Part shown: piece by piece, positions 10,399-60,900 of the stretch
Layout: each line of letters begins with the position of its first letter
How positions within the stretch are numbered: the stretch's first letter is position 1
DNA from: a virus
IMG/VR virus record: IMGVR_UViG_3300025127_000024
Span: 4,994-68,993 of that record
Direction: 5' to 3' (one strand)
Length of the DNA: 64,000 nt
Position numbers and translations under genes: made by a program
Notes under the pieces: model-generated
Told to the model about the DNA's origin: nothing
What the model saw: the letters and a program-made list of their open reading frames with translations, nothing else
Database searches by the model: none

Positions 10399-10752
10399 TT
10401 ATTGTAATTTTAATGCGGTTAATAACTCTTCATTAAATGCTCCTTCTATCATTATATTGGTACCGCTTTTAGTCCATAGCATTGTCGTGGGATATAACGA
10501 CACACTAGACTTTTTGTTATTTGTTTCATCAACAAAAATAGCGTACCAATTAGCATTTATAAAATCAGCATTTTCATCTAACATAGCTTTAACTTTTTGG
10601 CAATGTTTACACCAGTCTGCACTGTGAAGTTTTATTACAGTTCTTTTTTCTTGTTTAAATAATTCCTGTACTTCGTCGTCTGTGTACCAGTTTACTTGTG
10701 CCATAGCTATATTAGTTATTAATAAAAATAATAGACTAAAACGGTAGATCAT
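10399..10752 (-). CDS. thioredoxin-like protein with signal peptide
   Basis: Signal MIYRFSLLFLLITNIAMAQ; WCKHC; YPT cis-Pro motif. Confidence 0.8.
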   Translation of the reverse strand: MIYRFSLLFLLITNIAMAQVNWYTDDEVQELFKQEKRTVIKLHSADWCKHCQKVKAMLDENADFINANWYAIFVDETNNKKSSVSLYPTTMLWTKSGTNIMIEGAFNEELLTALKLQ

Positions 10753-16707: not shown

Positions 16708-16728
16708 ATTTATTTATTTATAATTTAG

Positions 16729-16802
16729 GTGCGCAGGGTGGACTCGAACCACCGACCTCGAGTTTATGAGACTCGCGAGCTAACCAGCTGCTCTACCGCG
16801 CA
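16729..16802 (-). tRNA. tRNA with CAT anticodon (Met, or Ile2 if lysidine-modified)
   Basis: Full cloverleaf: TGCGCGG/CTGCGCA acceptor, GAGC/GCTC D stem, CGAGT-CTCATAA-ACTCG anticodon arm, GGTGG-TTCGAGT-CCACC T arm. Confidence 0.92.
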
Positions 16803-21817: not shown

Positions 21818-23359
21818 ATGTCAGACGCAATAGTCAAACATCTTAACTTTGGTGATGAAGCCAGAGATAAGGTATTTAAAGGAATCGATAAACTCACAAA
21901 CGCTGTCAGCTCTACATTAGGAGCTGGCGGTAAGTGTGTGATGTTAGAAGATGCTAGTGGGAAACCACAAATAACAAAGGACGGTGTTACAGTTGCTAAC
22001 ACTATTACTTTATTGGATCCAGTAGAAAATATGGGTGCTACACTGCTAAAAGAAGCAGCGCGACAAACTGTTAAAGAAGCTGGTGATGGAACCACTACGG
22101 CTACAGTGCTCGCCCACTCAATTCTAACTGGCACAATAAAAAAAGACATAAATTCTAGAGAATTAAAACAAGGTATAAGTAGTTGTGTTGAAAAAGTTAT
22201 AGAATATTTAGAAAAAAATTCTGTAAAAGTAGACGGTGATATGTTAAATCAAGTAGCTACTATATCTGCTAACAATGATACTGAGCTCGGTGAAATAATA
22301 GCATCGGCATTTAAAGAAGTAGGACCAAAAGGTGTAGTTAGCATGGAAACATCTAGAGATGAAAAAACTACATACGAAATAGTAGATGGAGCTGTGTTAA
22401 ACAAAGGATTAAAAAATTATCACTTTGTAACAAATCAAGAAAAACACACTGCAGAATTAAAAAACCCTTTAATACTATTAGTAGAAAATAAAATAGAGCA
22501 TGCTAGAAAAATACAAAGTGTTTTAGAGTATGTAATAAAAAATAAAAGATCCTTACTTATTGTTGCTGAGTGCGACTTAACAGTTTCATCAATGCTAGCA
22601 ATGAATAAGATAAAAGGTAATATAAAAGTTAATATTGTAGATTCTCCAGATTATGGTATTAATAGAAAGCAGATACTGCAAGATTTAGCCGCGATAACAG
22701 GCGCTAAAGTTATAAATGAAGATTTAGGTGATGATATTGATTTAATACAACCTGATTATTTAGGCGAAGCAAGTAAATGTATTACTAACTCAGATGAAAC
22801 TATAATACAAGTAGATGAAGTATCTGAAGAAGTAAAAAAATTAATTGAATCAGTAGAAAATCAACTCAAAGAAGCTACTACTCCTGGAAAAATAATACAG
22901 TTAGAAAAAAGACTAGCTTTATTAAATGGTAAAGTAGGTATTATAAAAGTAGGAGCAAACTCTGAAGTAGAGTTAAAAGAAAAAAGTGATAGAGTAGAAG
23001 ATGCTATATGTGCTACTAAAGCCGCAATAAAAGAAGGAATACTACCAGGCGGTGGTATAGCTTTGTTAAACGCTGCGCAAAAAGTAAAAGCTAATTCTGA
23101 AAGTCAACAAGTTTTATTAGATGCTATAAAAGCTCCGTTTAAAACAATACTAGCTAACGCTGGTATAGATTATACAGAGCCTAATAAAATTGGCGAAGGA
23201 TTAGATGTAGTTACAGGAAATATGGTAAATATGATTCAACATGGTATTATAGACCCTTTGTTGGTGACAAAAAGCGCTTTAAAAAATGCGGCTTCTGTAG
23301 CAACTACTATACTGTCAACAGATTGTGTAATTAATAATGTAAGACATGAAAGCAATTAA
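21818..23359 (+). CDS. groEL: chaperonin GroEL
   Basis: ITKDGVTVA, AGDGTTTATVLA, GILPGGG, GIIDP motifs; no GGM tail. Confidence 0.95.
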   Translation: MSDAIVKHLNFGDEARDKVFKGIDKLTNAVSSTLGAGGKCVMLEDASGKPQITKDGVTVANTITLLDPVENMGATLLKEAARQTVKEAGDGTTTATVLAHSILTGTIKKDINSRELKQGISSCVEKVIEYLEKNSVKVDGDMLNQVATISANNDTELGEIIASAFKEVGPKGVVSMETSRDEKTTYEIVDGAVLNKGLKNYHFVTNQEKHTAELKNPLILLVENKIEHARKIQSVLEYVIKNKRSLLIVAECDLTVSSMLAMNKIKGNIKVNIVDSPDYGINRKQILQDLAAITGAKVINEDLGDDIDLIQPDYLGEASKCITNSDETIIQVDEVSEEVKKLIESVENQLKEATTPGKIIQLEKRLALLNGKVGIIKVGANSEVELKEKSDRVEDAICATKAAIKEGILPGGGIALLNAAQKVKANSESQQVLLDAIKAPFKTILANAGIDYTEPNKIGEGLDVVTGNMVNMIQHGIIDPLLVTKSALKNAASVATTILSTDCVINNVRHESN

Positions 23360-24623: not shown

Positions 24624-24866
24624 ATGGGAGATATGAGAAACAAACCTAGTGTTGGTATAAGTCCAGCTAAGTCTACAAAGATTCCTGCAAAAGGAACTAA
24701 CTCACAAGTTGGTAGTACAGCTGTATGGGACGGACCACATAAGCCAAAAGGACCTTTTATTAAAGGTTCTAGCAATGGAGCTGATGGTATAGCTTTATTA
24801 GCTAAAAATGCTCCAGCTTATAAGGCAGGACCTATAACTAAAATTGCTGGTTGCGAAAGTTGCTAA
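24624..24866 (+). CDS. small hypothetical protein
   Basis: ORF track. Confidence 0.6.
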   Translation: MGDMRNKPSVGISPAKSTKIPAKGTNSQVGSTAVWDGPHKPKGPFIKGSSNGADGIALLAKNAPAYKAGPITKIAGCESC

Positions 24867-24867
24867 T

Positions 24868-25326
24868 ATGAGGATAAGCGAGCATATAACATATGCAGAA
24901 GCAATACACTCTAACACTGCTAAGCGTAGAGGTATTGATAATACTCCAAGCCCAGTGCATGTAGAAACAATGCAACTAACGGCTAAAAAAATATTTGAAC
25001 CATTAAGAGAGTGGGTTGGCGGACCAATAAAAGTTACCAGCATGTTTAGGTCTGCAGCTTTAAACGAAGCTATCGGTGGGGCAAAAAGTTCACAACATAT
25101 GAAAGGTCAAGCAATGGACCTAGACGATGTATATGGTTATAAAACAAATGCGGAAATGTATCATTGGATTAAAGAAAATTTAAACTTTGATCAATTGATA
25201 TGGGAGTTTGGAACAGATACTAATCCTAACTGGATTCATGTTTCATACGTAAATGATGAAGACAATAGAAATAGATGTTTAAAAGCATACAAAGAAAACG
25301 GTAAAACTAAATATAAAGTAATATAA
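24868..25326 (+). CDS. peptidase M15 family endolysin
   Basis: TSMFRS..LN..IGGAKSSQHMKGQAMD...WIHVSY Zn-binding motifs. Confidence 0.88.
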   Translation: MRISEHITYAEAIHSNTAKRRGIDNTPSPVHVETMQLTAKKIFEPLREWVGGPIKVTSMFRSAALNEAIGGAKSSQHMKGQAMDLDDVYGYKTNAEMYHWIKENLNFDQLIWEFGTDTNPNWIHVSYVNDEDNRNRCLKAYKENGKTKYKVI

Positions 25327-27920: not shown

Positions 27921-28751
27921 ATGGCATTTAAAATGAATTTAGGAAGCCGAACAGGTTTCAAAGCAAAAATAAACTCACCAGCAGGTATGTTAAGAGGACA
28001 TAGCTCACCGCTTAATGTTACCATAGACGCCGCGACTGGAAACCCTTGTGTTCCAGCAGGTCAACCAAATCCAAGCGGATTACCTATATGTGGTGAAAGA
28101 AGAGCTATAGGAGAAGAAAGAGAAGTAGGTACAGAAATAATAGAAAGAGACGGGCAAAAGTTTAGAGTATCAACATTTGAGCAAGACTATGAAACGCCTG
28201 ATATGATTCCTGGAAATCCAGGTTTAGGAAATGTTGTTGAGCAAGAAAGACCTTCGGGTGGTGGTGGACCAGGCGCTTGTGATTTATATGAAAAAGGTGA
28301 TAACTTAGGTCAAGATAAAGAAGCATGTAGAAAATATAGAGAACATCAAGTAAAAATAGGTGAAGATCCATGTTATCAATATCGAGCAGAAAGAAAATTT
28401 TGTCCAAACCCAGAAACTCAATCGTTTAGTGTTGAAGGAAATAAATGTGTTTGTAGAGAAAATATTCCATCGTCTCCAGCTGATGATTCATTTACAGTTT
28501 TAGACGAAACAGATACTTTTACAAGAGAAGAATTAATTCCACCAACCCCACCTCCACCACCACCTCCAGGTATGGGAGGCCTTGGTGTTACAGGTGGTAG
28601 TAAAACTAGAGGTGGTAAATTTAAAATAAACTTACCTACTATTGATGTAAGTAGGATAAAGCCAGGTGATATTGTTGCAAAACTACCTGGATTCGTAAGG
28701 ACAAGATCAGGAAGATGTAAAGCCGGTTGCGCAACAAATGCTCCAAGATAA
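27921..28751 (+). CDS. Cys/Pro-rich hypothetical protein with SPL motif
   Basis: MAFKM..., HSSPLN, poly-Pro stretch. Confidence 0.65.
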   Translation: MAFKMNLGSRTGFKAKINSPAGMLRGHSSPLNVTIDAATGNPCVPAGQPNPSGLPICGERRAIGEEREVGTEIIERDGQKFRVSTFEQDYETPDMIPGNPGLGNVVEQERPSGGGGPGACDLYEKGDNLGQDKEACRKYREHQVKIGEDPCYQYRAERKFCPNPETQSFSVEGNKCVCRENIPSSPADDSFTVLDETDTFTREELIPPTPPPPPPPGMGGLGVTGGSKTRGGKFKINLPTIDVSRIKPGDIVAKLPGFVRTRSGRCKAGCATNAPR

Positions 28752-29206
28752 TGCCAAAGAAAAAATTTAGTGAAACGAAAGTAGGACAGTTTTTATCTAA
28801 AGCTGCTCCAGGTATACTAGGCACTGTTGGTGATGTTTTACCAGATAACGGAGTGTTAGGTATAGTAAAAAATTTAATTTCAAAAGAAGAAGCATTGCCA
28901 CCTGAAGATAAAGAAAAGGCGATGAAGCTTTTAGAAATGGATATAATAGAAATGCAAGAAGTATCAAAACGTTGGGAAAGCGATATGAAATCAGATTCAT
29001 GGCTTTCTAAAAATACAAGACCTATGTCTTTAATATTTTTAACTATATCAATGGTTATACTAATATTATTAGATAGTTTTGAGTGGAGCTTTATGGTTTC
29101 AGCAGGATGGGTTGATTTATTACAAACATTATTAGTTACTGTTTACGTAGCTTATTTTGGTTCACGAGGCGCAGAAAAATTTCAAACAATAAAAAATAAA
29201 AAATAA
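28751..29206 (+). CDS. holin (GTA 3TM-like)
   Basis: RWESDMKSDSWLSKNTRP, two TM helices, YFGSRGAEK. Confidence 0.75.
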   Translation: MPKKKFSETKVGQFLSKAAPGILGTVGDVLPDNGVLGIVKNLISKEEALPPEDKEKAMKLLEMDIIEMQEVSKRWESDMKSDSWLSKNTRPMSLIFLTISMVILILLDSFEWSFMVSAGWVDLLQTLLVTVYVAYFGSRGAEKFQTIKNKK

Positions 29207-35732: not shown

Positions 35733-35960
35733 ATGGACTCTGTTATAAGAAAAATTAGTATAGGAACTGACTATAAAAACGAAGCAATGCATTACTCCGT
35801 AGGCCAAGAGGTTTATGGAGGACATGTTATTTCTGCTATACTATTAAATGACTCAGACTCTTCTTATAACATTTATATAGAAAAAAATGATGAGGTATTG
35901 CCATGGAAAAAATTTAATTCTAACATGGCAGTATCTTTAGAGTATGATTTAAACTATTAA
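35733..35960 (+). CDS. conserved hypothetical protein
   Basis: ORF track. Confidence 0.65.
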   Translation: MDSVIRKISIGTDYKNEAMHYSVGQEVYGGHVISAILLNDSDSSYNIYIEKNDEVLPWKKFNSNMAVSLEYDLNY

Positions 35961-36565
35961 TGAAAAGTATAGAAGACTTTATAGTATCACCTTTAACAAA
36001 ACGATATGAAAATGAAATAGATGTTGAAGGGATAAAGTTAATAACAAATACCAATATAGAATCTTACAAGCATGTTAGTAATTTAGCAAAAGTTGTAAGT
36101 ACTCCAATTGTTAATAATACAGAGATAAAAACCGGAGATATAATTGTAATACATCATAATGTATTTAGAAGGTTTTATGATATTAGAGGTAATGAAAAAA
36201 ATAGTAAATCTTTTTTTCAAGATGATTTATTTTTTTGTAAAGAAGATCAAATATATTTATACAAAAATAATGATACCTGGAAAGCAATTGGTGAAAGATG
36301 TTTTGTAAAACCTTTAAAAAACAAAAACAAATTAGAGGTTGACAAAATATTAAACCATATTGGTATATTAAAATATAGTAATAACTCCTTAGAAGCGCTA
36401 GGATTAAACAAGGGAGCGCTAATAAGCTTTCAACCTAACTCAGAATTTGAGTTCGTAGTTGATAAAGAGTTTTTGTATTGTATGAAATCTAATAATATTG
36501 TTGCACATCATGAATATCAAGGACACGAAGAAGAATATAATCCAAGCTGGACAAGTAGCTGTTAA
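35960..36565 (+). CDS. tandem GroES-like domain protein
   Basis: Two GroES-like units: FIVSP...KTGDIIVIHH and KAIGERCFVKP...NKGALISF. Confidence 0.55.
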   Translation: MKSIEDFIVSPLTKRYENEIDVEGIKLITNTNIESYKHVSNLAKVVSTPIVNNTEIKTGDIIVIHHNVFRRFYDIRGNEKNSKSFFQDDLFFCKEDQIYLYKNNDTWKAIGERCFVKPLKNKNKLEVDKILNHIGILKYSNNSLEALGLNKGALISFQPNSEFEFVVDKEFLYCMKSNNIVAHHEYQGHEEEYNPSWTSSC

Positions 36566-36788
36566 AGAGCTAATAAAGGTAGCTAAAGAACCTATAATAG
36601 ATTTTGGCCCTGATATTTCAGCAGATAGACTTAAAAACGCAGCTGCTACTAAGAAGCTAGCTATATTTGATGCTTTTGAAATATTAGAAAGAATACAAGA
36701 AGAAAAAAACATATTAGAAAACAAACCTAAAGAAGAAGTTAAAAAAGAAAAAACTTTTAAAGGTTTTGCAGAAGGAAGATCTAAGTAA
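36510..36788 (+). CDS. putative terminase small subunit
   Basis: Helical protein directly before terL; start set at MNIKDTKK. Confidence 0.5.
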   Translation: MNIKDTKKNIIQAGQVAVKELIKVAKEPIIDFGPDISADRLKNAAATKKLAIFDAFEILERIQEEKNILENKPKEEVKKEKTFKGFAEGRSK

Positions 36789-39010
36789 TGTATCAACAAA
36801 GTTTATATAAGATATTAGATAACCATATTAAACCAAATGTTATTAAAAAGAAAAATAGATATAACAAATGGGAGTATGGATACAATGAAGATTATGATGT
36901 GGTTGTTATTAGTAAGACTGGTAAAATAGGTGAAATATATGAAATACAGAATCTTAAAATAGCTTTACCTTTAGTAGATAAAAAAAATGTCTACGAAAAT
37001 GAAGATAAAAAATGGAGTAAAATACCTTATCCAAAACAACTACAAAGAATAAAAACAGTATTTGATTGGAAAGAATATCCAGAAGATTTTAAAGAAAAAT
37101 GGTATGATTATATTGACAAAGAATTTACTCGTAGGGAAGAAGGCTTTTGGTTTACTAACAAAGATAACCCTACTTATATCACTGGCACTCATTACATGTA
37201 CTTGCAGTGGAGTAAAATTGACGTTGGGGCACCAGACTTTCGAGAATCAAATAGATTATTCTTTATTTTCTGGGAGGCTTGTAAAGCAGATCCACGATCC
37301 TATGGATTGTGCTACCTTAAGAACAGACGTTCTGGGTTTTCCTTTATGGCCTCAGGAGAGGTGGTTAACTTGGCAACCATATCATCTGACTCTAGATATG
37401 GTATATTATCAAAGTCCGGTCCTGATGCTAAGAAGATGTTCACGGACAAGGTGGTACCAATATCGGTTAATTACCCCTTCTTTTTCAAACCGATACAGGA
37501 CGGTATGGACCGTCCCAAAACCGAACTTGCCTACCGTGTACCAGCCAGTAAATTTACCAGACGTTCCATCACCGTTACCGGTGACGAAGCCCCCACGGAT
37601 CTCGAGGGGCTGGATACCACAATCGACTGGAAGAATACCGGTGACAACTCCTACGACGGGGAGAAACTCAAACTCCTCGTCCATGATGAATCGGGGAAGT
37701 GGGAACGTCCGAACAACATCCTCAACAACTGGAGGGTCACGAAAACCACATTAAGATTAGGTAGTAGAATTATAGGTAAGTGCATGATGGGCTCAACAAG
37801 TAATGCTCTAGATAAAGGTGGGGATAATTTTAAAAAACTTTATTATGACTCAGACGTTACAAAAAGAAACGCCAACGGACAGACTAGCTCAGGACTATAT
37901 TCTTTGTTCATTCCTATGGAATGGAATTACGAAGGATACATTGATTCTTATGGCATACCTGTCTTCGACACACCACAGGAACCAGTTGAAGACCCGCATG
38001 GGCAAAAAATTAAACTAGGTGTAGTTGATTTTTGGCAAAACGAAGTAGATGGTTTAAAACAAGATCAAGACGGTTTAAATGAATTCTACAGACAGTTTCC
38101 AAGAACAGAGCAACACGCATTTAGAGATGAAGCAAAAGAATCTTTATTTAATCTAACTAAAATATACGAACAAATAGATTATAATCAAGATTTAAGAAAT
38201 ACAGCTGTTGTAACTAAAGGTTCATTTCAGTGGGAAAATGGTATAAAAGATAGTAGAGTTATATTTGTTCCTAACAATAGTGGTAGATTTAAAATATCAT
38301 GGATACCTCCTATGCATTTGCAAAATAAGCATTATATAAAAAATGGAATTAAATACCCTAGCAATGAACATTGCGGTGCATTTGGATGTGATAGTTACGA
38401 TATATCAGGAACTGTAGATAAAAGAGGATCTAATGGTTCTTTGCATGGTCTAACAAAGTTTAGTATGGAAAACGTTCCGCCTTATCATTTTTTTTTAGAA
38501 TATATAGCAAGACCACAAACAGCTGAAATATTTTTTGAAGACGTGCTTATGGCTTGTATATTTTACGGTATGCCGATACTTGCTGAAAATAATAAACCAA
38601 GATTATTATATCATTTTAAAAGAAGAGGATATAGAGGTTTTAGTATGAATAGACCTGATAAAATATATAATAAATTATCTGTAACAGAAAGAGAAATAGG
38701 TGGTGTACCTAACTCTAGTGAAGATATGAAACAAGCTCACGCTGCAGCTATAGAATCATATATAGAAGAGCACGTTGGTTATTTGGGTGAAGAATATGGA
38801 GATATGTATTTTGACTCTACTCTAGAAGACTGGGCTAGATTTAATATAAACAATAGAACAAAACACGATGCTTCAATAAGTTCAGGTTTAGCTATAATGG
38901 CTTGTAATAAAAACAGATATTATCCAGTTAATAAAATAGAAAGAAAACCAATTAGTTTAGGTTTTAAAAAATATAATAACGAAGGTACAGTTTCTAAAAT
39001 AATTAAGTAA
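36788..39010 (+). CDS. terminase large subunit
   Basis: Walker A-like KNRRSGFS, Walker B LLVHDESGK, GSTSN, nuclease GCDSYD...HDASIS. Confidence 0.9.
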   Translation: MYQQSLYKILDNHIKPNVIKKKNRYNKWEYGYNEDYDVVVISKTGKIGEIYEIQNLKIALPLVDKKNVYENEDKKWSKIPYPKQLQRIKTVFDWKEYPEDFKEKWYDYIDKEFTRREEGFWFTNKDNPTYITGTHYMYLQWSKIDVGAPDFRESNRLFFIFWEACKADPRSYGLCYLKNRRSGFSFMASGEVVNLATISSDSRYGILSKSGPDAKKMFTDKVVPISVNYPFFFKPIQDGMDRPKTELAYRVPASKFTRRSITVTGDEAPTDLEGLDTTIDWKNTGDNSYDGEKLKLLVHDESGKWERPNNILNNWRVTKTTLRLGSRIIGKCMMGSTSNALDKGGDNFKKLYYDSDVTKRNANGQTSSGLYSLFIPMEWNYEGYIDSYGIPVFDTPQEPVEDPHGQKIKLGVVDFWQNEVDGLKQDQDGLNEFYRQFPRTEQHAFRDEAKESLFNLTKIYEQIDYNQDLRNTAVVTKGSFQWENGIKDSRVIFVPNNSGRFKISWIPPMHLQNKHYIKNGIKYPSNEHCGAFGCDSYDISGTVDKRGSNGSLHGLTKFSMENVPPYHFFLEYIARPQTAEIFFEDVLMACIFYGMPILAENNKPRLLYHFKRRGYRGFSMNRPDKIYNKLSVTEREIGGVPNSSEDMKQAHAAAIESYIEEHVGYLGEEYGDMYFDSTLEDWARFNINNRTKHDASISSGLAIMACNKNRYYPVNKIERKPISLGFKKYNNEGTVSKIIK
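37104..37754 (+). CDS. putative lipoprotein overprinted in the +1 frame of terL
   Basis: 216-aa stop-free frame; KK + hydrophobic + LITC signal; local GC rise coincides with the overlap. Confidence 0.55.
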   Translation: MIILTKNLLVGKKAFGLLTKITLLISLALITCTCSGVKLTLGHQTFENQIDYSLFSGRLVKQIHDPMDCATLRTDVLGFPLWPQERWLTWQPYHLTLDMVYYQSPVLMLRRCSRTRWYQYRLITPSFSNRYRTVWTVPKPNLPTVYQPVNLPDVPSPLPVTKPPRISRGWIPQSTGRIPVTTPTTGRNSNSSSMMNRGSGNVRTTSSTTGGSRKPH

Positions 39011-41404
39011 ATGAATATATACACAAATCCTAATAGTTCCTTTCCTAGCCAAGTTGTTAGTGACGAAGAAAAATCAAGCTGGGACTACGGTATACAGGTA
39101 GGACGTGCTATTGAGCAAGAGTGGTTTCAACAGGGTAGAGCAGGTAATAGATTTGCTGTAAGCTGGAACCACTATCATCAACTTAGGCTGTATGCTAGAG
39201 GAGAACAAAGTGTTCAAAAGTATAAAGATGAGTTATCTATTAATGGTGACCTAAGCTATTTAAATATAGACTGGAAACCAGTTCCTATATTATCAAAATT
39301 TGTAGACATAGTTGTAAATGGTATGTCTCAAAAAAAATATGAAATAACAGCATATGCTCAAGACCCACAATCTCAAAAAGCTAGAACACAATATGCTCAA
39401 GGGTTATTAAGAGATATGACTGTAAAAAACGAAGCTTTACAGGTTCAACAAGCTATTGGTGTAAATATTTTAAAACACGATCCAAGTACTTTGCCTGAAA
39501 ACGAAGATGAATTACAGCTTCATATGCAGCTTGATTATAAACAATCAGTTGAATTAGCTGAAGAAGAAGCTATAAATAATACTTTAGCTTTTAATAAATA
39601 TGATTTAGTAAGACGAAGACTAAACATGGATTTAACTGTTTTAGGTATAGCTTCAGCAAAAACACATTGGAACAGATCTAACGGAATAACAATTGATTAT
39701 GTTGATCCAGCTAATTTAGTTTATTCATATACTGATGATCCTAATTTTGAAGATATATATTATGTAGGTGAAGTAAAATCAGTAACAATACCTGAGCTTA
39801 AAAAACAATTTCCTGATATATCAGATGATTTATTAAAAAGAATACAGGATATGCCGGGTAATAGACAATTTGTTACTGGTTGGAATAATTATGACGAAAA
39901 CACTGTTCAAGTTTTATATTTTGAATATAAAACATATAATAACCAAGTTTTTAAAATAAAACAAACAGAGCAAGGTTTAGAAAAAGCTTTAGAAAAACCA
40001 GATACATTTAACCCACCACCTGCAGATAACTACGAAAGAGTTAGTAGGAGTATAGAGGTTTTATATACTGGATGTAAGGTTTTAGGAATAAATGAAATGT
40101 TAGAGTGGAAGTTGGCTGAGAATATGACTAGACCAGCTTCTGATACGAGTAAAGTTCAGATGAATTATACTCTTGTAGCTCCAAGAATGTATAAAGGTAG
40201 AATAGAATCTGTGGTTAGTAAATGTATAGGTTTTGCTGATATGATACAGCTAACACATTTAAAACTACAACAAGTAATGTCTAGAATAGTTCCTGACGGT
40301 GTGTTTGTAGACATTGATGGCTTAGCTGAAGTAGACTTAGGTAATGGTACTAATTACAATCCAGCAGAAGCTTTAAACATGTTTTTTCAAACAGGTAGTA
40401 TTGTAGGTAGATCTTTAACACAAGATGGAGAGTTAAATAGAGGTAAAGTACCTATTCAAGAGTTAACATCTTCTAGTGGTCAAGCTAAAATAGCTAGTTT
40501 AATACAAACTTATAACTACTATTTACAAATGATTAGAGACGTGACCGGTTTAAATGAAGCAAGAGATGGATCGGTTCCTGATAGAGATACTTTAGTTGGC
40601 TTACAAAAAATGGCTGCTAATGCTTCAAATGTAGCAACTAAACATATTTTACAAGCTAGCTTATATGTAACCTTAAGAATTTGTGAAAACATTTCTTTAC
40701 GTATAGCTGATTCTTTAAATTTTCCTTTATTAAGAAATACACTTGTTAGTTCTATAAGTAAGTACAATGTAGAAACTTTAAAGGAATTAGAAAATAAAAA
40801 CATACATGACTTTGGTATTTATTTACAATTAGAGCCTGAAGAAGAAGAGCAACAACAGTTAGAACAAAATATACAAATAGCTTTACAATCAGGTGGTATT
40901 GATTTAGAAGACGCTATAGATTTAAGACAAATACACAATCTTAAGTTAGCTAATCAAATGCTAAAGCTAAAAAGAAAAAGAAAACAACAGAGAGAAGAAC
41001 GACTTGCTAAAGAAAATATACAAGCTCAAGCTCAAGCAAATGCACAGCAAGCAGAGCAAGCAGCTATGAATGAGGTTCAAAAGCAACAAGCGTTAACTCA
41101 AGAAAAAGTTAATTTTGAGCAAGCTAGATCGCAGATGGAAATACAAAGAATGCAAGTAGAAGCTCAAATAAAACAACAGATGATGGCAGCACAGTTTGAC
41201 TATGATCTGCAACTAGCTCAAGTATCTGTACAACAAGTGCAGGCTAAAGAGCAATATATTGAAGATAGGAAAGATAAAAGAACTAAGCTTCAAGCAACTC
41301 AACAAAGTGCGATGATAGATCAAAGAAAAAATGATTTATTACCTACTGATTTTGAGCAACAAGACTCAATGGGTATTGGTTTAGAAAACCTACCTATAGT
41401 TTAA
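39011..41404 (+). CDS. portal protein
   Basis: Follows terL; ~800 aa with Gln-rich C-terminal coiled coil (P22/crAss-like). Confidence 0.85.
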   Translation: MNIYTNPNSSFPSQVVSDEEKSSWDYGIQVGRAIEQEWFQQGRAGNRFAVSWNHYHQLRLYARGEQSVQKYKDELSINGDLSYLNIDWKPVPILSKFVDIVVNGMSQKKYEITAYAQDPQSQKARTQYAQGLLRDMTVKNEALQVQQAIGVNILKHDPSTLPENEDELQLHMQLDYKQSVELAEEEAINNTLAFNKYDLVRRRLNMDLTVLGIASAKTHWNRSNGITIDYVDPANLVYSYTDDPNFEDIYYVGEVKSVTIPELKKQFPDISDDLLKRIQDMPGNRQFVTGWNNYDENTVQVLYFEYKTYNNQVFKIKQTEQGLEKALEKPDTFNPPPADNYERVSRSIEVLYTGCKVLGINEMLEWKLAENMTRPASDTSKVQMNYTLVAPRMYKGRIESVVSKCIGFADMIQLTHLKLQQVMSRIVPDGVFVDIDGLAEVDLGNGTNYNPAEALNMFFQTGSIVGRSLTQDGELNRGKVPIQELTSSSGQAKIASLIQTYNYYLQMIRDVTGLNEARDGSVPDRDTLVGLQKMAANASNVATKHILQASLYVTLRICENISLRIADSLNFPLLRNTLVSSISKYNVETLKELENKNIHDFGIYLQLEPEEEEQQQLEQNIQIALQSGGIDLEDAIDLRQIHNLKLANQMLKLKRKRKQQREERLAKENIQAQAQANAQQAEQAAMNEVQKQQALTQEKVNFEQARSQMEIQRMQVEAQIKQQMMAAQFDYDLQLAQVSVQQVQAKEQYIEDRKDKRTKLQATQQSAMIDQRKNDLLPTDFEQQDSMGIGLENLPIV

Positions 41405-47156: not shown

Positions 47157-50100
47157 ATGGCTGAAATTAAAAACAGTTTCTTAAAATCTAAAATGAACAA
47201 AGACCTAGATGATAGGTTGGTTCCAAATGGAGAATATAGAGACGCGGTAAATATATCGGTTGGAAGATCAGAAGGTGATGACGTTGGTGCGTTAGAAAAC
47301 ATTTTAGGTAACGAAGAGGTTCATTCTAATACTGGCTTAACTTGTATTGGTTTATATTTCGATAACATTGGTAATAGAATATTTGAGTTTTTAACTAACT
47401 ATACAGATCCAAAACCTTTACAACTAATACCTGCAGACACTACTGATACTTGTAAAATAAGAGTAAAATCTTTTGACGGTTCTCAACCATATTATACTTT
47501 AGTAGAAGGTAGTTTTCTTAATTTTTCTATGGGTAAAGATTTTTTAATACACTCTGTAAACTTAGTTGAAAATCAACTGTTTTGGACTGATAACAGAAAT
47601 CAACCTAGAAAAATAAATATAGATTTAGCTATAAACGACCCTAATCATTATAAGTATGAATGGCAAATATCTGTTGCTAAATATTCTCCTATAACACCAA
47701 TATCACTTGTAAAAAAAGCTAGTTTATTAGTTGATTCCGCTACGACAAACTCAACTGTAAGATTAAAAAAAGCTGGAGCAAACGGTGTACCAGAGGTTGG
47801 AATGACGGTAATAACAAATGGAACTACAAGTTGTAATTTTGTAACCGTGCTTACAGTAGATGATAGTCAAACAAACTTTTATGAGTTAACACTGACAGAT
47901 GCTATAAACGTAAGTGTTGATGACATTGTTTATTTATTTATATCTACAATGACTAACGAGAGCACAAATCCTAATTGGCCTGGTGATCCAGATTATTTAG
48001 AAGCTAAATATGTTAGGTTTAGTTTTAGATTTAAATATGAAGATGATGAGTATTCAACATTTGCTCCATTTTCACAAATAGCGTTTATACCCAAGCAAAA
48101 AGGTTATTTTATAGATGGTGACGAAAAAGATGCTTTTAGAAGCACGGTTATTAGATGGTTTGAAAACAATGTTAATCAGATAGCTTTATTAATACCACTT
48201 CCTAGTAAAGCAACACAAATACTCACAAGATATAAAATATCTGAGATAGATGTATTATATAAAGAAAGTGATAGTCGAGTTGTAAAAATACTTGAAACTT
48301 TAACAGCTGCTCAAATACAAGCTAATAATAATGAAAGCAATGTTTATGAGTATGTTTATAAGTCGCAAAAACCATATAGAAGTTTAGCTGAAAACCAAAC
48401 AACTAGAGTGTATGATAAAGTTCCTGTTAGGGCTATATCTCAAGAAGTATCAGGAAACAGAGTAATATATGGTAACTATTTTGAAGGCTGGACACCTCCA
48501 CCTAGTTTAAATTATAAATTAACTTTTCAAGAAAAAGGAGATTCATTTGACAACTTTATAGAGTATCCAAATCATACTGTTAAAGAAAATAGAAATTATC
48601 AAGTAGGTGTTATATTAGCAGATAAATACAACAGACAATCTTCTGTTATTTTGTCTACATTAGACGATATATCTTCAAGTGCTATAGAAAAAGGATCAAC
48701 TATATTTGCTCCTTATAGTAGTGTGACTAGTCCTTATAATGTTAAATGTTATAATGGTAGTGCTATAAGATTTTTATTAGAAAGCTCTATATCTTCTGCT
48801 AGAAACATACCAACTGGAGTTCCAGGTCTGTATGCTGTTCAACAAAAAAATGGATTTGCTATAAACGCCGGCGCTGTGTCAAACACTAGTTATACTTTTA
48901 CTTTTGATACAACTTCTACATTTGATAATATTCCTTCAATTGGACAATATTTAAGAGGTGAGTATCAAGACTATGTAGAAATAACTGCTATAACTGGTCC
49001 AAGCTTATCTAATGCGTATACTATAACTTGTAATGAAGATATTAGTTTAAAATACAATACAAACAAAGCTTTACCCTCAAGCGTAGAAGACGTTAAGTTT
49101 TCTTATTTGTTAAATAAAGATGGTTGGTATTCATATAAAATAGTTGTTAGACAACAAGAAGTAGATTATTATAATAGCTATTTAGCTGGTATGCTTAAGG
49201 GTTATCCGCTACAACAAACATCTGGTTCTAACACGGTTTACACTACAATAAGTCCCGGTAATAATCTTCCTGATTATGTTATGCCTGAAATACAACATGG
49301 GGTTAATACCACAGATTTTCCTGTAGGAGAAGAAAATAAAACAGCACATGTAGTTCTTATAAATGACAATATAAATAAAATACCTAGAGATTTGTCAGAG
49401 GTTGGTCCTGATCAAACTCAATATAGAAGTAGTGAAGAGTTATTTGGTAGAGTTGAAAATTTTGAATCAGTTTGTGAACTTACTGAAACAACTGGGTATA
49501 TCCCCCTAGCTTCTCAAGCTATGGTGAATTATATAGAATATGACTCATCTGATCCTAACCTACCCTCGTGTATAGCTAGGTTAAGAGTTGGTGATGGTGT
49601 AGAGGGAGTTGGTAGTAATAATACAGGTAGTATAAACTACCCTGATGATTGGTATAAAAATACTGTAATAAATAGAATAGATCAAGACTTTGCTTTAGAT
49701 GCTGTAGATACGTCTTTAAATAGTGTAACTAATAATACAGATGTAGAGCTGAGTACTTTAAATGCAACTTTAGGTAGCTGGTTTGCTACAGCTGGCGTTG
49801 GTGTAATACAAGCTACTAATAATAATGATGAAACTTTTGCAACTGACGGTGTTACAAATTTAACTGTAAGTAACGTTGATAATACAGGAGCTAAAACAAT
49901 AATAACATTTAATACAGCTGTTGATATAGGTGCTGGTGGTGTTATTAAATTTAAATATCCTCAAGGCACAGGAAGAATATACTTTCAACCATCACAATTA
50001 GTTTTATCATCTAATCAAAGCGGTAGTACAATGTCTTTTAAATTTTTCTTAGAAGAAAATAGACAGTATTACCCTGCAACTAAAGCTGACGTTGTTAGTA

Positions 50101-52925
50101 CTATAGCTGATGCTAAGACTTTAGGATTTTTACCAAACACGTTAGATAATGTTAGGGGTACAGCTTCTCTTAATTTTTATAACCTTGAGACAAACCCTTT
50201 AATTGGTAGAATATCAACGGTTAAACCTATAGGTGTAAGCGGTGGTAGTATGGTTCCTTTCTTAAGTATATACGAAACCAAACCAGTAGAATCTGCGTTA
50301 GAAGTTTTTTGGGAAACAGCATCTACGGGTTTAATATCAGATATAAATGAAGACGTACAAACAGGTTTTGATGGAGTAGTAGGATTTAGCACACTTAATT
50401 ATAAGCATGTAGAAGATCAGGATTACCAGGGAGTAGGTACAACTACAGGTGCTAGTGATGCTAAATGGATTACCGATGCTTTTTTCATGGTAGATCAACA
50501 GGGAACAAATTTAACATCTGCTGTTATAAATAGTTTCACGGTTACCACCCAAACAGTTCCTGTTCAAGACATAAGCTCTAAATTTGAACTTGTATCAAAC
50601 TATACAACAACCGGTGAATATAGATTTGCTATTGCGTCAGATAATTTTGTTTTTAATCACGATGCTGATGAGTTAGAAAATTATACTTTTACTTGTAACG
50701 TAACTTATGATGGTGTTACTTCTGATTTTATATTTAATGGCAGGTTACAAAATGTATCTCCTGAAATAGATCCTGCCTGTAATACTTATTCTGTTTCAAG
50801 CGATAATACTAATACAGGTACTTTAGTAACAATGACTGGTAATAATGGTTCTTTTATACAATCATCTTCTGATTTGTTTTGGGAAATAGATCCATCAACA
50901 AATACTAACAATTATTTTACTTTACAAAATGTAAATAATGAAGCTGTAATAACTATAACACAAAACAATCCTAATGGTTTACCCACAACAGGTGTTTATA
51001 ATTTAACTATAAGATTAACTGATGCTTGGGATTATACTAATAATTCACCTACTGGAACAATAAATAGTGGTGTTTATGATAGTAAAAGAGTTGAATGTTC
51101 TGGTGCTGCTGCAAACTTAGACATAACAATAGGCACACCCTCGGTAAATCCATGTATACAAGGCGCAATACCAGTTACTGGTTTTGGAGGCAACTACGGA
51201 GAGTTACCAGTATATAATAGGTCATATGCTATAAATGGAGGAGTACCTAGCTGTGATGGACAAAATATGAGCGCTGATAGCGGTAACCAACCTGGGCCTA
51301 ACAATAAACATTATGCTGGCGTTTATATAGGTAGAGACGATATATTAAATAAGCCTAACGCATCACCCCCAATTGTTCCTTTTACTTCAACTGGTGGTGG
51401 TTGGACAGGCACTAATGCTAATTATAGCACTGGAAATCCAGTTAGCACTTTAGGTTTACCGACAACTGGAACTGTTTTTGGATCTACAAACCCTAGTATA
51501 AAGCCAATGTCTTTGGTGCACTTAGATAGAGCGGTTCCTTCTAATCCTAATGTTCCTAACAGCGGTGGTTGTACAGACACTTCACAAGGTGGTTGTAGTA
51601 GAGGTGTTATGAAGTTTACCGTAGAAGTGTTGTGTGACGCAGCCGCGCTGGCCGGTTGTTCAGATCCTTTAGCTATGTGTGGTGATAGAATGAGCTCATC
51701 TGTTAAATACAAAATATTTCATAGAGCACTACAGTCTTCTTCACCAAACTCTTTATCATGGTCAACTGTTGCGGATGAAAACGGACAACTACAAGGTGAG
51801 GAACCAATAGTAGTGGCAGAAGTTGGTGATGGTGCAAGTGCTAGTAGTGTTGTAAATGTCAACTATTCTTCTATGAGTTTTGATATATTTATAGACTGCT
51901 CAGCTAATCCTGGAGAATACTTTTTATACTTTGAATTTGCACCAGAATCAACAAATACAGCATATGGTTGTAATTATAATGGAACTGGTTGTACTTTAGA
52001 AGTTAGTTATTCTGACGCGAACTACTCATATCCAAATGGAACCGGAACAGTTCCAACACCTATATCTGGTGGTGAGTTTTATTTAGGTATGGAAAAATTT
52101 CCTAATGTAGATAACTCAGCTGCAGGTATAGAGTTTACAACATCAAGTGGTAATCCTTATATACTGGGTTATGATCCAGGTGCTAACAATACAGTTCCTT
52201 ATTCTGGTGGTAGTTTATTTGACAACACTACAGATTTTTCTGCAACTGTATCAGTAGAAAATGGATTAACATTAACATTAAATCAATCTCTACCTAAAGT
52301 TTCTATTGGACAAGGTGTTGTTCTTTCAACAGCAACTAGTGGTCCAGCTTTAGCATACGTTAGTGATGTTAGTGAGGTTGGTGGTGTAACACAAGTTGTT
52401 TTATCTAATGCACCTGGAACCGTATTAGCTAACAATAATATTTCTTTTGTAAACAATTTTTACGAAGGAACTTTATCACAAGCAAAATTTGTAGGAAAAG
52501 TATATGGTAATATAGGTTCTATTAATGCTAACAATTTACAAGAATTATATGTTGATGCGGCTAGAACAACACCGTTTGTTCCTAAAAGAGCAGATAGATA
52601 CTACACTATAACGCAAAACGTGACTCTTACAGACAATAAAGACGGTAATCATTTATCAGTTTCTCGATGGGATTATACAAATCTTGGTAATTACCCTGGT
52701 AGTATAAGTGGTAATGGCGCTAGTGCAACAGAGTGGAGAGAAGACTACAGTACTGGATACCCTAGATTTACTGTTAGACTAAATTCTAATGGTAAATTAA
52801 TAACTGATCCCGATGGTGTAAAAAGAAGATTTTGGCAGGGAGGTGGTAGAACCCCAACAGTTAATACTCCTGGTGAAGCTTGGCAGATGACAAGGCCTTT
52901 TAAAGGGCAGCAATACTATGGGTAA
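47157..52925 (+). CDS. tail stabilization/muzzle-like protein with appended domains
   Basis: KMNKDLDDRLVPNGEYRDAVN, LFWTDNRNQPRKIN, GNRVIYGNY motifs. Confidence 0.7.
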   Translation: MAEIKNSFLKSKMNKDLDDRLVPNGEYRDAVNISVGRSEGDDVGALENILGNEEVHSNTGLTCIGLYFDNIGNRIFEFLTNYTDPKPLQLIPADTTDTCKIRVKSFDGSQPYYTLVEGSFLNFSMGKDFLIHSVNLVENQLFWTDNRNQPRKINIDLAINDPNHYKYEWQISVAKYSPITPISLVKKASLLVDSATTNSTVRLKKAGANGVPEVGMTVITNGTTSCNFVTVLTVDDSQTNFYELTLTDAINVSVDDIVYLFISTMTNESTNPNWPGDPDYLEAKYVRFSFRFKYEDDEYSTFAPFSQIAFIPKQKGYFIDGDEKDAFRSTVIRWFENNVNQIALLIPLPSKATQILTRYKISEIDVLYKESDSRVVKILETLTAAQIQANNNESNVYEYVYKSQKPYRSLAENQTTRVYDKVPVRAISQEVSGNRVIYGNYFEGWTPPPSLNYKLTFQEKGDSFDNFIEYPNHTVKENRNYQVGVILADKYNRQSSVILSTLDDISSSAIEKGSTIFAPYSSVTSPYNVKCYNGSAIRFLLESSISSARNIPTGVPGLYAVQQKNGFAINAGAVSNTSYTFTFDTTSTFDNIPSIGQYLRGEYQDYVEITAITGPSLSNAYTITCNEDISLKYNTNKALPSSVEDVKFSYLLNKDGWYSYKIVVRQQEVDYYNSYLAGMLKGYPLQQTSGSNTVYTTISPGNNLPDYVMPEIQHGVNTTDFPVGEENKTAHVVLINDNINKIPRDLSEVGPDQTQYRSSEELFGRVENFESVCELTETTGYIPLASQAMVNYIEYDSSDPNLPSCIARLRVGDGVEGVGSNNTGSINYPDDWYKNTVINRIDQDFALDAVDTSLNSVTNNTDVELSTLNATLGSWFATAGVGVIQATNNNDETFATDGVTNLTVSNVDNTGAKTIITFNTAVDIGAGGVIKFKYPQGTGRIYFQPSQLVLSSNQSGSTMSFKFFLEENRQYYPATKADVVSTIADAKTLGFLPNTLDNVRGTASLNFYNLETNPLIGRISTVKPIGVSGGSMVPFLSIYETKPVESALEVFWETASTGLISDINEDVQTGFDGVVGFSTLNYKHVEDQDYQGVGTTTGASDAKWITDAFFMVDQQGTNLTSAVINSFTVTTQTVPVQDISSKFELVSNYTTTGEYRFAIASDNFVFNHDADELENYTFTCNVTYDGVTSDFIFNGRLQNVSPEIDPACNTYSVSSDNTNTGTLVTMTGNNGSFIQSSSDLFWEIDPSTNTNNYFTLQNVNNEAVITITQNNPNGLPTTGVYNLTIRLTDAWDYTNNSPTGTINSGVYDSKRVECSGAAANLDITIGTPSVNPCIQGAIPVTGFGGNYGELPVYNRSYAINGGVPSCDGQNMSADSGNQPGPNNKHYAGVYIGRDDILNKPNASPPIVPFTSTGGGWTGTNANYSTGNPVSTLGLPTTGTVFGSTNPSIKPMSLVHLDRAVPSNPNVPNSGGCTDTSQGGCSRGVMKFTVEVLCDAAALAGCSDPLAMCGDRMSSSVKYKIFHRALQSSSPNSLSWSTVADENGQLQGEEPIVVAEVGDGASASSVVNVNYSSMSFDIFIDCSANPGEYFLYFEFAPESTNTAYGCNYNGTGCTLEVSYSDANYSYPNGTGTVPTPISGGEFYLGMEKFPNVDNSAAGIEFTTSSGNPYILGYDPGANNTVPYSGGSLFDNTTDFSATVSVENGLTLTLNQSLPKVSIGQGVVLSTATSGPALAYVSDVSEVGGVTQVVLSNAPGTVLANNNISFVNNFYEGTLSQAKFVGKVYGNIGSINANNLQELYVDAARTTPFVPKRADRYYTITQNVTLTDNKDGNHLSVSRWDYTNLGNYPGSISGNGASATEWREDYSTGYPRFTVRLNSNGKLITDPDGVKRRFWQGGGRTPTVNTPGEAWQMTRPFKGQQYYG

Positions 52926-57913: not shown

Positions 57914-60900
57914 ATGGAATTAGATCCAATACAACAACAACAACTGGTTACTTTTCAATCAAACTTTGAAGGTAGTCAAGAGGAATACGATAGACAACTA
58001 GCCGAGTTGTATGCTCAGTTTAAAAGAGAAAACGAGCAAAAAGAGCTAGCAGCTAGATTTGACAAAAGAAAAAAACAAATACTGGGAAACCAATACAGCC
58101 CTGCGGATCAAGCGGAGACCACTGCAGGTGCGAATCAAGATGGGGTCTCCAGTTTCGTGCAGGACATAGAACCGCTTTCATTGGAGTCGTTTTTAAACAT
58201 GACGCTTCAACAAAAAAGAGGACTTAGTTATGATGAGCAAAACAGATTGTTTGAAGAAGCTGAAAACAGAGAGCTTTTTAATGACTATGTTTTAGATCCT
58301 GAAAATAAGGGGTTTACAAAAAATCGTATACCAGATGATTTAAGATTAGAAGATATAGCTGGTAATCTATTTGAGATTAAAATTCCTACTGCGCAACTAC
58401 TAGAATCTCCTATTATGGAAGATTATACTAAGTTATATTATGAAAGCAAAGGTCTTAACTATGAAAAAATAAAAGAAGCTAAAGACAAAAGTGAATATAA
58501 CCAAGGAGCATTAGAGGTTTTAAAAGGGGCTAGTTATATGGAAAAGCAACCAACTGCTGACAACACAATGCTTAACATAGGTTTAGCGCTTGGCATGGGT
58601 GGTCCTGGTACACAATTAGGTGTAGGGTCTAGTGGTCAAACAGCGACCGCTAAATTTGACAAAACAACTGGCCAAAATGTTGCTCCAGAAATAAAAGAGG
58701 AATATCCAGAGTTATTTGATGATAATGGTGACTGGGCTTTTAACAGCTATGAAGAACTGCAAAAACATAGAAATAAACTTGGAGATGAAAATAGAAAATA
58801 CGCAGATATTACAGCTTCAAAATGGAACAGGGAAATAGAAAAAGAAATAGACATTAAGTTTAAAAATCTTTTAGATGAAAGCAGGATAGAGCAAAAAGTA
58901 ATGCTTGAATATATTGAAGAAAAAGCTAAAGAAACTGAAAAATTTTTATTTGATTCTTACCAAGTAACATCAGCAGATGTTGGAGACTTTGATAATAGTG
59001 GGGCTGTTGATTTTGTAGATACAACTAAAGCCTTAATAAGCAACTTTGATCAACAATTAAATATATTAGAAGTAGAAGTACAAGATAGATTAGGTATACC
59101 ATTATCTAAGTTAAACACTTTTAAACCTAGTAATGCAGATGAAGAAGCTGAACTACAAAACTTTTTAATTAAACAAAATAATTTATACACACAAGCTATT
59201 CCTTTAAATGAGGTATTAGCTGAAATGAATAGTTTAACATGGGCAACAGACTATGTTAATCAAGCGCAAAAAGTAAACCAAGTTTTAATGAACTTTGGTG
59301 ATGTCGCTAGAACAAGAGGTGAATATGAAAGTGGTAAATTTGCTTCTATAGTAAACAACGTTAAAAAAGGTTTTGTACAAGGTGAGTTAAATGATGAGTT
59401 TTGGCGAGTTGCTTATGGTATTACAGACTTAGATGATCCTGAAGAACTAAAACGTGTGTCTGAAACAGTTGCTTTATTAACAGCTAAAAACAACGGTATA
59501 TTAACTAGTGAAGTTTGGGAAGACTATACAAATGCTAAAACTGTTTCTGAAAAGTTTGAAATACTAGGTCAAGAACCTGGAGAAATTTTATTAAGTTTGT
59601 TTGGTAATTCTATGGCTCAATTCTGGGAAACAGGAGACGAGTTAATTATTCCTGTAGTTGGTGGCGCAACAGCAATAGGTGCTGGTGTAGGGTCTACAGC
59701 TGGAGGTGTTGGTGCTATCCCAGGTGGACTAACAGGTTTGCAATATGGTTTAGCTACATGGCAAGGTATTACAGCTTTAAACATGGAGATAGGTAATGCT
59801 TATCAAACAGTTATGACTGAAGCTGGGTTAGATCTTTCTAATCCTGAAGATGTTATAGCTGGTTTAAAAGATCCAAAAATAATAGCCAAAGCAGATGAAC
59901 TTGGTTTAAAACGAGGTATACCTATTGCTATAATGAATCTTGTAAGCGCCAAAGTAAGTACTAGTATGATAGGTAGAACTGCTTTATCAGGTTCAAGAAC
60001 TAAAATAGCTACAGCTGTAGGCGCTGGCTTTATAGTTGATCCAGTTTTTGAAGGAACTGGGGAACTTGGTGCTCAAGTTATTTCAGGTGAAGGTATAAAG
60101 CCTACAGAAATAATGGACGAAATGATAGGTGGTACCGCTGGTACAGCCTCTAACATAAGTGTTAAGCTCATGAGAATGAGTATATTTAACGAAGCCGCTA
60201 AGCAAGCTCAAAAATTAAAGAATCTAGACGCTATGGTAAATTCTAACTATAGCACACAGAAAATAGATGAGTTTACTAATAGGTTAGAAAAACAAAAAAA
60301 GATCACTAGTGAAGACGCTAAGGTGCTTAGAGACAATGCTAGGATTATAGATGAGGCTAATAATCAAATTAAAAACAACGCGCCTAAAGGTAAAGTAAGT
60401 AACAATGTTAAATTAAGACTTGCTGATCTAATTAAAAATAAAAAACTAATTAAATCGCAACCAGGTTTAGAAACAGCCGCTGCTAAAAGCTTAAAACAAA
60501 TAAACGAAGAAATATCTTTAATAACTAAAGACAATGCGTTAAAAAGTGAAAACAGTTTTGTTACTATAAAAGACTTTGCTAATAAACAAAAGCAAACATT
60601 AAATGCTGTTACACCGTTTTTAAAATCTTTAGGTATAGATTCTGAAGTAGAAATAATAGAAATAAACACACAAGAAGATTACAATAAACTACCATCTGTT
60701 TTTAATAAACAAAACGTTATTGATGTTTTTAAAAATTCAACTGTGTCTGCTTTTGCTAGTGAGTATGTTCAAGGCCAACCTCAATACATAGTAGTTAATA
60801 ATCAAAACGTACAAAAAAACGGAGTAGCAAACTTAATTAATCAAGGTTCTACTGATGTTGCTGCTGTTAGTGTTGCTCACGAGGTTTTACATACTGTGTT

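Follow-up and report, generated by a model that had tools for sequence, protein, structure and literature searches.

Within a 64,000-nucleotide (nt) stretch of viral DNA (hereafter the window), which covers bases 4994–68993 of the 68,993-base IMG/VR virus record IMGVR_UViG_3300025127_000024 and reads as podophage-like, the gene for the large subunit of terminase, terL, contains a second, overlapping open reading frame (ORF). CheckV rates the record as complete. The terL gene lies at 36788..39010 on the + strand and encodes 740 amino acids (aa; phrog_6681, E 9.4e-165). On the same strand and in the +1 frame ((37104 − 36788) mod 3 = 1), the candidate nested gene occupies 37104..37754 and consists of 216 codons plus a TAA stop. 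Its frame is open from a TTG at 37062 to 37754, with the first ATG at 37104, and this ATG is preceded by an A-rich, GC-poor stretch (37044..37103, + strand; GC content 0.23, A content 0.52) that includes the in-frame TTG. Walker-A-like and Walker-B-like stretches of terL, picked by eye, fall inside the overlap.

The predicted product starts with a signal-peptide-like N-terminus (residues 1–36, 37104..37211), in which an n-region containing K6, K12, K13 and K20 is followed by an h-region (residues 21–31, 37164..37196) and then by Cys32 (37197..37199), Thr33, Cys34 (37203..37205), Ser35 and Gly36. The mature part (residues 37–216, 37212..37751) is rich in T, S, R, L, P, Q and G, has 22 K+R versus 8 D+E residues and is predicted to be without a fold. 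This agrees with a preliminary description of the same DNA, which had made out a basic N-region, the run LLISLALITC, W/Y-rich and P-rich parts and an R/S/G low-complexity tail; the tail reads R/S/G/N/T.

The preliminary description had also judged a 216-aa stop-free frame within terL to be improbable by chance, and our results bear this out. When synonymous terL codons inside the overlap were exchanged between positions coding for the same residue, so that both the terL protein and local codon usage were unchanged, the window sequence acquired a mean of 6.3 +1 stops and 0 of 1000 shuffles was stop-free, with the caveat that the span under test was set by the ORF itself. Other frames of the ten largest + strand genes in the window stayed open for at most 23–66 codons, versus 233 at the nested ORF. 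The nested ORF has a GC content of 0.449, compared with 0.302 for the remainder of terL and 0.333 for the whole window, and in 200-nt segments GC rises from 0.23–0.29 at 36700–37200 to 0.42–0.54 at 37200–37800. The claim that this GC-rich patch reverts right after the TAA held in part: the GC content at third codon positions (GC3) of terL in ORF-bearing homologues falls at the nested stop from 0.58 to 0.25, whereas total GC beyond the TAA stays at 0.375–0.39 over 37700–38100. We took a 91-aa antisense ORF (37409..37684, − strand) to be a by-product of the local GC richness.

Conservation of the +1 frame among terL homologues

IMG/VR holds at least 599 relatives of the window terL (599 of 600 pattern matches encode relatives). 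We built a codon alignment of the best 80 of these, which are 77–82% identical in aa sequence, together with the window gene, giving 81 sequences. Openness of the +1 frame in homologous terL genes had been put forward as a check, and it proved widespread: counted from the column of the window ATG, the frame is open for 209–220 codons in 32 of the 81 sequences and for 186–187 codons in 20 more, hence for at least 186 codons in 52, and is otherwise broken. The longest ATG-started ORF with the same N-terminus reaches at least 145 aa in 59 sequences, which we call ORF-bearing, leaving 22 without; the length of the product varies at its C-terminal end (216–220, 186, 167 or about 145 residues). For the open copies the shuffles predicted 2.6–7.3 +1 stops, and none was observed in any of the 52 (P ≤ 0.001 in 41, maximum P 0.022). 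The GC content of the overlap is 0.36–0.47 in open copies versus 0.29–0.34 in fully broken ones. A second set of loci, from a sister clade described below, gave no stops in 35 of 35 distinct sequences (P ≤ 0.001 in 33).

One explanation of this pattern would dispense with a protein altogether, a GC-rich patch being kept for RNA structure, as a packaging or recombination signal or as a recombining cassette, with the open frame as a side effect. GC-rich DNA is poorer in stops in all frames, and the RNA of 37104..37754, folded as a single sequence, is somewhat better than shuffles (z −2.35, 20 shuffles). However, the 2.6–7.3 stops were still expected under local codon usage, the +2 frame was undepleted in the same test and retained 14–26 stops, and an Rfam scan of the nested region returned no match at E ≤ 1. 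Further evidence on this point comes from the signal peptide (see below).

The openness is not simply inherited, because synonymous sites are nearly saturated, the excess of codon identity at conserved residues over the composition expectation being 0.25 inside the overlap and 0.22 outside it. On terL trees, the state of the ORF changed at least 10 times (tree from overlap residues) or at least 15 times (tree from the C-terminal half), which implies that the ORF was lost repeatedly, or exchanged by recombination, and that GC3 relaxed thereafter. We rejected the idea of a foreign GC-rich insert undergoing amelioration: the terL protein is 85–87% identical across ORF states, the boundaries of the patch track the ORF, and the shuffles reject random decay. 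Several public predicted proteins of low identity (P0030 and P0084–P0090) change frame one to three times, alternating between that of terL and the nested one; these switches are probably assembly indels in the GC-shifted stretch, which would lower apparent search identities, and the proteins were excluded from the alignments.

The nearest deposited phages are distant, with terL identities of 64% for MW202828, a phage from a spring-water metagenome, 44% for Flavobacterium Elemovirus and 37% for Cellulophaga phages. In MW202828 and one Elemovirus, the two that we examined, terL has many +1 stops.

Selection on the signal peptide and on composition

The third codon positions of terL are the second positions of the nested frame. 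As terL is highly conserved, the nested protein therefore evolves almost only through its second codon positions. Stops in homologous genes together with a lack of synonymous constraint had been named as counter-evidence; we found frame-specific constraint at the hydrophobic core and at T33, C34 and S35. Along the h-region, the terL third positions are T in 56–59 of the 59 ORF-bearing sequences versus 7–17 of the 22 without, producing Leu-, Ile- or Val-type nested codons, and the mean Kyte–Doolittle hydropathy is 2.69 versus 1.42. Synonymous resampling gave average hydropathies of only 0.09–0.63 for this region, with P ≤ 0.05 in 59 of 59 sequences under local codon usage and in 50 of 59 under usage from outside the overlap. 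The residues that follow the first Cys are likewise fixed by synonymous choice (Tyr as TAC, 100% versus 33%; Leu as xTG, 100% versus 29%; Gln as CAG, 94% versus 19%), each choice putting a small residue at T33, C34 or S35 in place of a bulkier one (I, Y and N, respectively). A plain GC-rich patch is insufficient to explain this, because the base held in the core is T, while elsewhere in the ORF G and C are over-represented.

The start codon is also maintained: 49 of 52 open copies retain the ATG, versus 14 of 22 broken ones, and five sequences without the usual ATG have a replacement four codons downstream, with the signal peptide intact. This bears on a second alternative, in which ribosomes translating terL would undergo a programmed +1 shift and fuse the terL N-terminus to the +1 product. 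The two frames do share a strand, and the +1 frame is open for 6–46 codons ahead of the ATG. Against such a fusion, most homologues have a +1 stop 6–20 codons upstream of the ATG, at varying places; the features under selection make up an N-terminal signal peptide that a fusion would bury; and the ATG is conserved or, where lost, replaced. We regard the chance of a frameshift product as next to negligible. In many homologues the stop lies 6 codons before the ATG, which excludes an upstream start in those. The nested gene would instead be translated from an internal ribosome start at ATG 37104, behind the A-rich, GC-poor stretch.

Beyond the signal peptide, constraint takes another form. The GC3 of terL in the overlap is 0.36–0.76 in ORF-bearing sequences versus 0.09–0.33 in the others; the rise sets in past the signal peptide and lasts up to the stop codon, and outside the overlap GC3 is about 0.15–0.25 in both groups alike. 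In five copies the remaining ~180 residues are basic, with 20–28 K+R versus 5–11 D+E. A point on the other side is that only two of seven held sites, T45 and S182, lie beyond the first 36 residues, so that there is little site-specific constraint there. Constraint past the N-terminus is on composition, not on particular residues, a feature that also fits the no-protein explanation; compositional rather than residue-level constraint is commonly reported for young overprinted proteins (PMC8227390, PMC6195259).

Our results show that selection keeps the frame open and preserves the ATG, the positive N-region, the short hydrophobic core and the small residues with Cys, and that it moves terL third positions from A/T to G/C. 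What would otherwise be an L/I/K-rich frame full of stops thereby encodes a basic, unfolded polypeptide rich in T, S, R, P and G. With T as the held core base, start codons that are conserved or replaced and a signal peptide that two clades keep in different registers (see below), an explanation without a protein appears very improbable. We conclude with high confidence that the +1 frame at 37104..37754 is a genuine gene overprinted on the ATPase domain of terL.

The second of these clades, found with a divergent database member, comprises 71 loci whose terL is 66–69% identical to that of the window. Its nested ORF is 232–238 aa long (GC 0.39–0.45 versus 0.30–0.35) and begins 14 codons upstream, its ATG aligning with the window TTG at 37062. 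All 27 distinct sister-clade sequences carry a canonical lipobox, [VA][IT]GSC, as in the signal M-I-F-K-T-I-Q-K-I-L-K-K-...-M-L-V-I-G-S-C-A-T-V-P. The Cys here derives from another terL Met (Met-Cys), and the Ser at −1 requires the rarer Phe codon TTC.

In the window the case for a lipid anchor is weaker. The lipobox consensus given in a spanin survey is [LVI][ASTVI][GAS]C (PMC6139136), from which both window candidates, L-I-T-C32 and T-C-T-C34, depart by having T at −1; moreover, Cys32 is dictated by terL Met-Tyr (ATG TAY). Homologues in the window clade read LITC, LTTC, LTIC or LIIC, the −1 residue being limited to T or I because it is built from the terL Tyr codon and the A of ATG. Off-consensus lipoboxes do exist among outer-membrane spanins (o-spanins), the same survey listing AWAC, LNGC and FVGC (PMC6139136). 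That two clades place a Cys right behind a hydrophobic core, each in its own register, supports export in both, and lipidation firmly only in the sister clade. The label of lipoprotein given to this product earlier thus holds for the sister clade, where 27 of 27 sequences satisfy the lipobox rule, and is only probable for the window copy, whose −1 residue falls outside the consensus. From these signals we consider the nested product very likely to be exported, a conclusion slightly less secure than that of the gene itself, whereas lipid anchoring in the window's clade appears evenly poised. The product would be exported by Sec and retained at the envelope, with a probable lipid anchor at Cys32 or Cys34.

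Searches placed the product in no named family. It matched no Pfam or PHROGs family, and tblastn against 50,697 phage records gave no match. In a public protein set, 90 protein clusters matched it, of which 0 were named and 0 had a Pfam family; the lack of a name or Pfam family arises because gene callers omit same-strand nested genes. A search of the ESM Atlas yielded unnamed clusters only, with a recognition value under that of known families. Contigs from three RNA libraries overlap parts of 37169..37826, but they may contain DNA and cannot show transcription, starts or translation.

A stand-alone lipoprotein gene and a candidate i-spanin-like partner

The preliminary description recognised no other spanin in the window, thereby missing a candidate inner-membrane partner (i-spanin) at 760..1047 (+ strand). 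This gene encodes a 95-aa membrane protein (phrog_1009, function unknown) that has a mean column identity of 81% across 47 sequences and for which AlphaFold2, run on those 47 sequences, predicts a membrane helix (residues 16–45), a Pro-containing linker and a long charged helix (residues 53–94), with a predicted local distance difference test (pLDDT) score of 76. At three related loci (L166–L168), its gene comes immediately after a holin-like small ORF and a gene for an amidase endolysin (phrog_822, E 9.5e-58), and one close relative has an endolysin-like gene some 770 nt downstream. The phrog_1009 protein spans several phage groups, including records of 100–167 kb without this terL family. 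By its predicted architecture and neighbours, the 95-aa protein looks like a member of an unannotated i-spanin-like family of marine phages.

In record G001, a complete relative in which the nested frame is broken by 10 stops, a 145-aa lipoprotein with a canonical lipobox is encoded at 68104..68541, and its gene runs at its end into the first part of a 96-aa gene that is a homologue of window 760..1047. In 14 of 25 loci, a stand-alone lipoprotein gene of this sort overlaps the membrane-protein gene at its start. Different, unrelated lipoprotein genes adjoin membrane-protein homologues in other phage groups, and a neighbour of this kind is frequent (L234, L259, L266, L267 and L289). These arrangements resemble the layout of a putative two-component spanin, with the gene order reversed. 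A scan for canonical lipoboxes found no canonical lipoprotein ORF in the window or in the whole 68,993-base record.

The stand-alone lipoprotein (138–150 aa; G001 and L169–L193) resembles the nested product in having a signal peptide with a Cys and the same order of parts, W/Y-rich, P-rich and N/S/T/G/R-rich, and the two are mutually exclusive across records. It differs in its canonical lipobox (SSC or ASC) and in being an ordinary gene save for ~32 nt that it has in common with its neighbour downstream. Short N-[KR]-G-x-G and S/T-T runs occur both in the tail of the nested product (37212..37751) and in that of the G001 protein, which may reflect convergence on a common partner or mere low complexity.

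We scored this exclusion in the best 80 of 151 relatives of the membrane protein; for 52 of them the same record covers the terL overlap region, in 9 cases partially. The nested gene was present in 0 of 11 records with a lipoprotein gene beside the membrane-protein gene versus 34 of 41 without one (Fisher P 5e-7, uncorrected for relatedness). Two of the seven records scored as having neither have a comparable lipoprotein gene located about 1.2 kb downstream, which changes the counts to 0 of 13 versus 34 of 39. Among the records found through the lipoprotein, all 19 analysable terL genes lack the nested ORF, with 7–16 +1 stops and no GC rise. Record G040 (L245/L197) has the stand-alone lipoprotein together with a 104-codon remnant of the nested ORF, in which the signal peptide is intact and GC is down to 0.33; this may be a recent loss of the nested gene.

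Because homology between the stand-alone lipoprotein and the nested family is lacking (hhalign probability 0.2), it is their distribution that carries the case for equivalence. On that basis the nested product is probably a functional stand-in for the stand-alone lipoprotein and would fill, in these phages, the job of that unrelated protein of related phages. Its most likely function would be a spanin-like one at the outer membrane, given the distribution and the presence of a lipoprotein gene beside an i-spanin-like gene that has a lysis-cassette position in some relatives. As the outer-membrane component of such a pair, made late together with terL, it would break the outer membrane at lysis. 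Taken by itself, a spanin-like role is plausible, with the balance slightly short of even. The preliminary description had offered a nested spanin-like or superinfection-exclusion lipoprotein; its exported overprinted gene is strongly supported, and the spanin-like option gains indirect support from the either/or pattern.

Several observations weigh against a spanin-like pair. AlphaFold2, given 74 nested sequences, predicts only a helix at residues 2–35 (mean pLDDT 41, with residues 35–216 at 34–45). The nested gene is embedded in terL and is neither in, overlapping nor beside the candidate i-spanin gene 36 kb away, which is itself far from the endolysin-like and holin-like genes of the window, so that the candidate lysis genes are scattered. 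The 95-aa protein has no Cys and a periplasmic part of only ~57 residues, the order lipoprotein then membrane protein is the reverse of that of known spanin pairs, and the protein may instead act as a holin or have another function altogether. G010, a 98%-complete sister-clade genome, has the nested gene and no detectable homologue of the membrane protein. The either/or pattern has its own exceptions: five records have neither gene (L217, whose upstream sequence is too short to judge; L219–L221, which form one clade; and L294, with 5 stops), and two (L270 and L272) carry the nested gene plus another small lipoprotein ORF 400–500 nt downstream of the membrane-protein gene. Finally, the terL tree leaves 5 well-supported independent contrasts (sign test p 0.0625), nearly all of which are opposite in direction, nested versus stand-alone. 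A complex prediction for residues 36–95 of the membrane protein with residues 33–216 of the nested product returned 'no answer' (score 0.00) and speaks neither for nor against binding.

These points leave room for a real exported product with no part in lysis, such as a superinfection-exclusion or receptor-masking envelope protein or another periplasmic factor, in which case the stand-alone lipoprotein would come from a comparable accessory gene serving as an alternative. What supports the gene and its export is equally compatible with this view, the membrane protein is a candidate partner only, the nested gene lies far from the lysis genes of the window, and G010 does without the membrane protein; in addition, Kongari et al. 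2018 count 31 phage genomes with a lipoprotein gene and no linked i-spanin candidate (PMC6139136). Set against this, the displaced lipoprotein gene overlaps the membrane-protein gene in more than half of the loci, the membrane-protein gene follows holin-like and amidase genes in some relatives, and its homologues in other groups adjoin unrelated lipoprotein genes, as expected of spanin pairs. We consider a non-lysis function unlikely, although well short of negligible. Overall, we lean towards an overprinted gene for an exported, disordered, basic envelope protein that is probably the outer-membrane half of a spanin-like lysis pair. More tentatively, we propose that a de novo overprinted gene may have taken over the role of the outer-membrane spanin lipoprotein in widespread marine Flavobacteriia-type podophages, in which two solutions would alternate among close relatives. 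In the window's clade, the overprinted one would use the off-consensus lipidation signal L-[IT]-[TI]-C, set by the codons of terL.

Elsewhere in the window, the portal gene (39011..41404) follows terL and is succeeded by structural genes, and the structural module holds two very large genes, 47157..52925 (1922 aa) and 57914..64000 (more than 2029 aa, running past the window end). A GroES-like gene (35960..36565, phrog_13932) lies just upstream of terL, as it does in Elemovirus ('chaperonin cpn10'), and the phage also encodes a GroEL-like protein (21818..23359, phrog_5725, E 1.8e-133). The other candidate lysis genes, both on the + strand, encode an endolysin-like peptidase (24844..25326, phrog_894, E 6.3e-32) and a holin-like protein (28727..29206, phrog_3427, E 1e-19) with one hydrophobic segment at residues 89–106 counted from the ATG at 28751. 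There is one tRNA-Met (CAT) gene at 16728..16802 (− strand). A small ORF at 10399..10752 (− strand) has a signal-peptide-like N-terminus and a CxxC motif and is thioredoxin-like by eye; another, at 1047..1454 (+ strand), gave no PHROGs match and corresponds in position to L163 1787..2200, a CxxC-type signal-peptide ORF in a relative.

Relation to embedded and overprinted genes

If the proposed role is correct, an overprinted gene would have displaced a lysis gene non-orthologously in nature, with many natural knock-outs available for comparison, and uncultured marine phages of a common group would be credited with a further lysis or envelope gene. Spanins are rarely annotated in this phage group (PMC8776804), and some Bacteroides and Croceibacter phages are listed as spanin-less in the survey by Kongari et al. 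(PMC6139136). A literature search, supplements excluded, found no report of a gene nested in terL, nor of spanins in this phage group. The locus also offers an unusually clean system for gene birth, with dozens of diverged copies, repeated losses accompanied by relaxing GC3, two independent signal-peptide solutions and a conventional alternative gene. A local rise of GC3 within a conserved phage gene can, moreover, flag a hidden frame.

Small exported lipoproteins that act on a receptor are one point of comparison, as in the exclusion proteins Llp of T5 and Cor, which belong to lytic phage; unlike in those cases, nothing at the nested gene points to a receptor. Within phage T7, genes 19.2 and 19.3 lie inside gene 19, and our literature search found nothing on them.

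The closest parallel is Rz1 of phage lambda, a lipoprotein-type gene wholly inside another phage gene, Rz, in the +1 frame (PMC6139136). The nested product is also like Rz1 in containing proline, in being largely unstructured and in having a periplasmic Cys, and the pair resembles Rz/Rz1 in that the candidate inner-membrane partner has an N-terminal membrane helix and a helical periplasmic part. The differences are substantial. The host gene here is terL, an essential packaging ATPase unrelated to lysis, and 36 kb separate it from the candidate partner. The nested product is unrelated to Rz1 in sequence, the window lipobox is off-consensus, and the pairing is suggested by distribution only. 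The mature nested product has ~180 residues, whereas that of Rz1 has 40.

In its origin, the gene more closely resembles the de novo overprinted genes of viruses (PMC8227390, PMC6195259): a new frame lies over an older conserved gene, its product is disordered and skewed in composition, and it is less widely distributed among taxa than the host gene. It differs from them in lying inside terL of a dsDNA tailed phage, and in the presence of natural knock-outs, seen in repeated loss with GC3 falling back, and of a stand-alone alternative. The case thus joins two known kinds of gene, the embedded lipoprotein gene like Rz1 and the overprinted viral gene.

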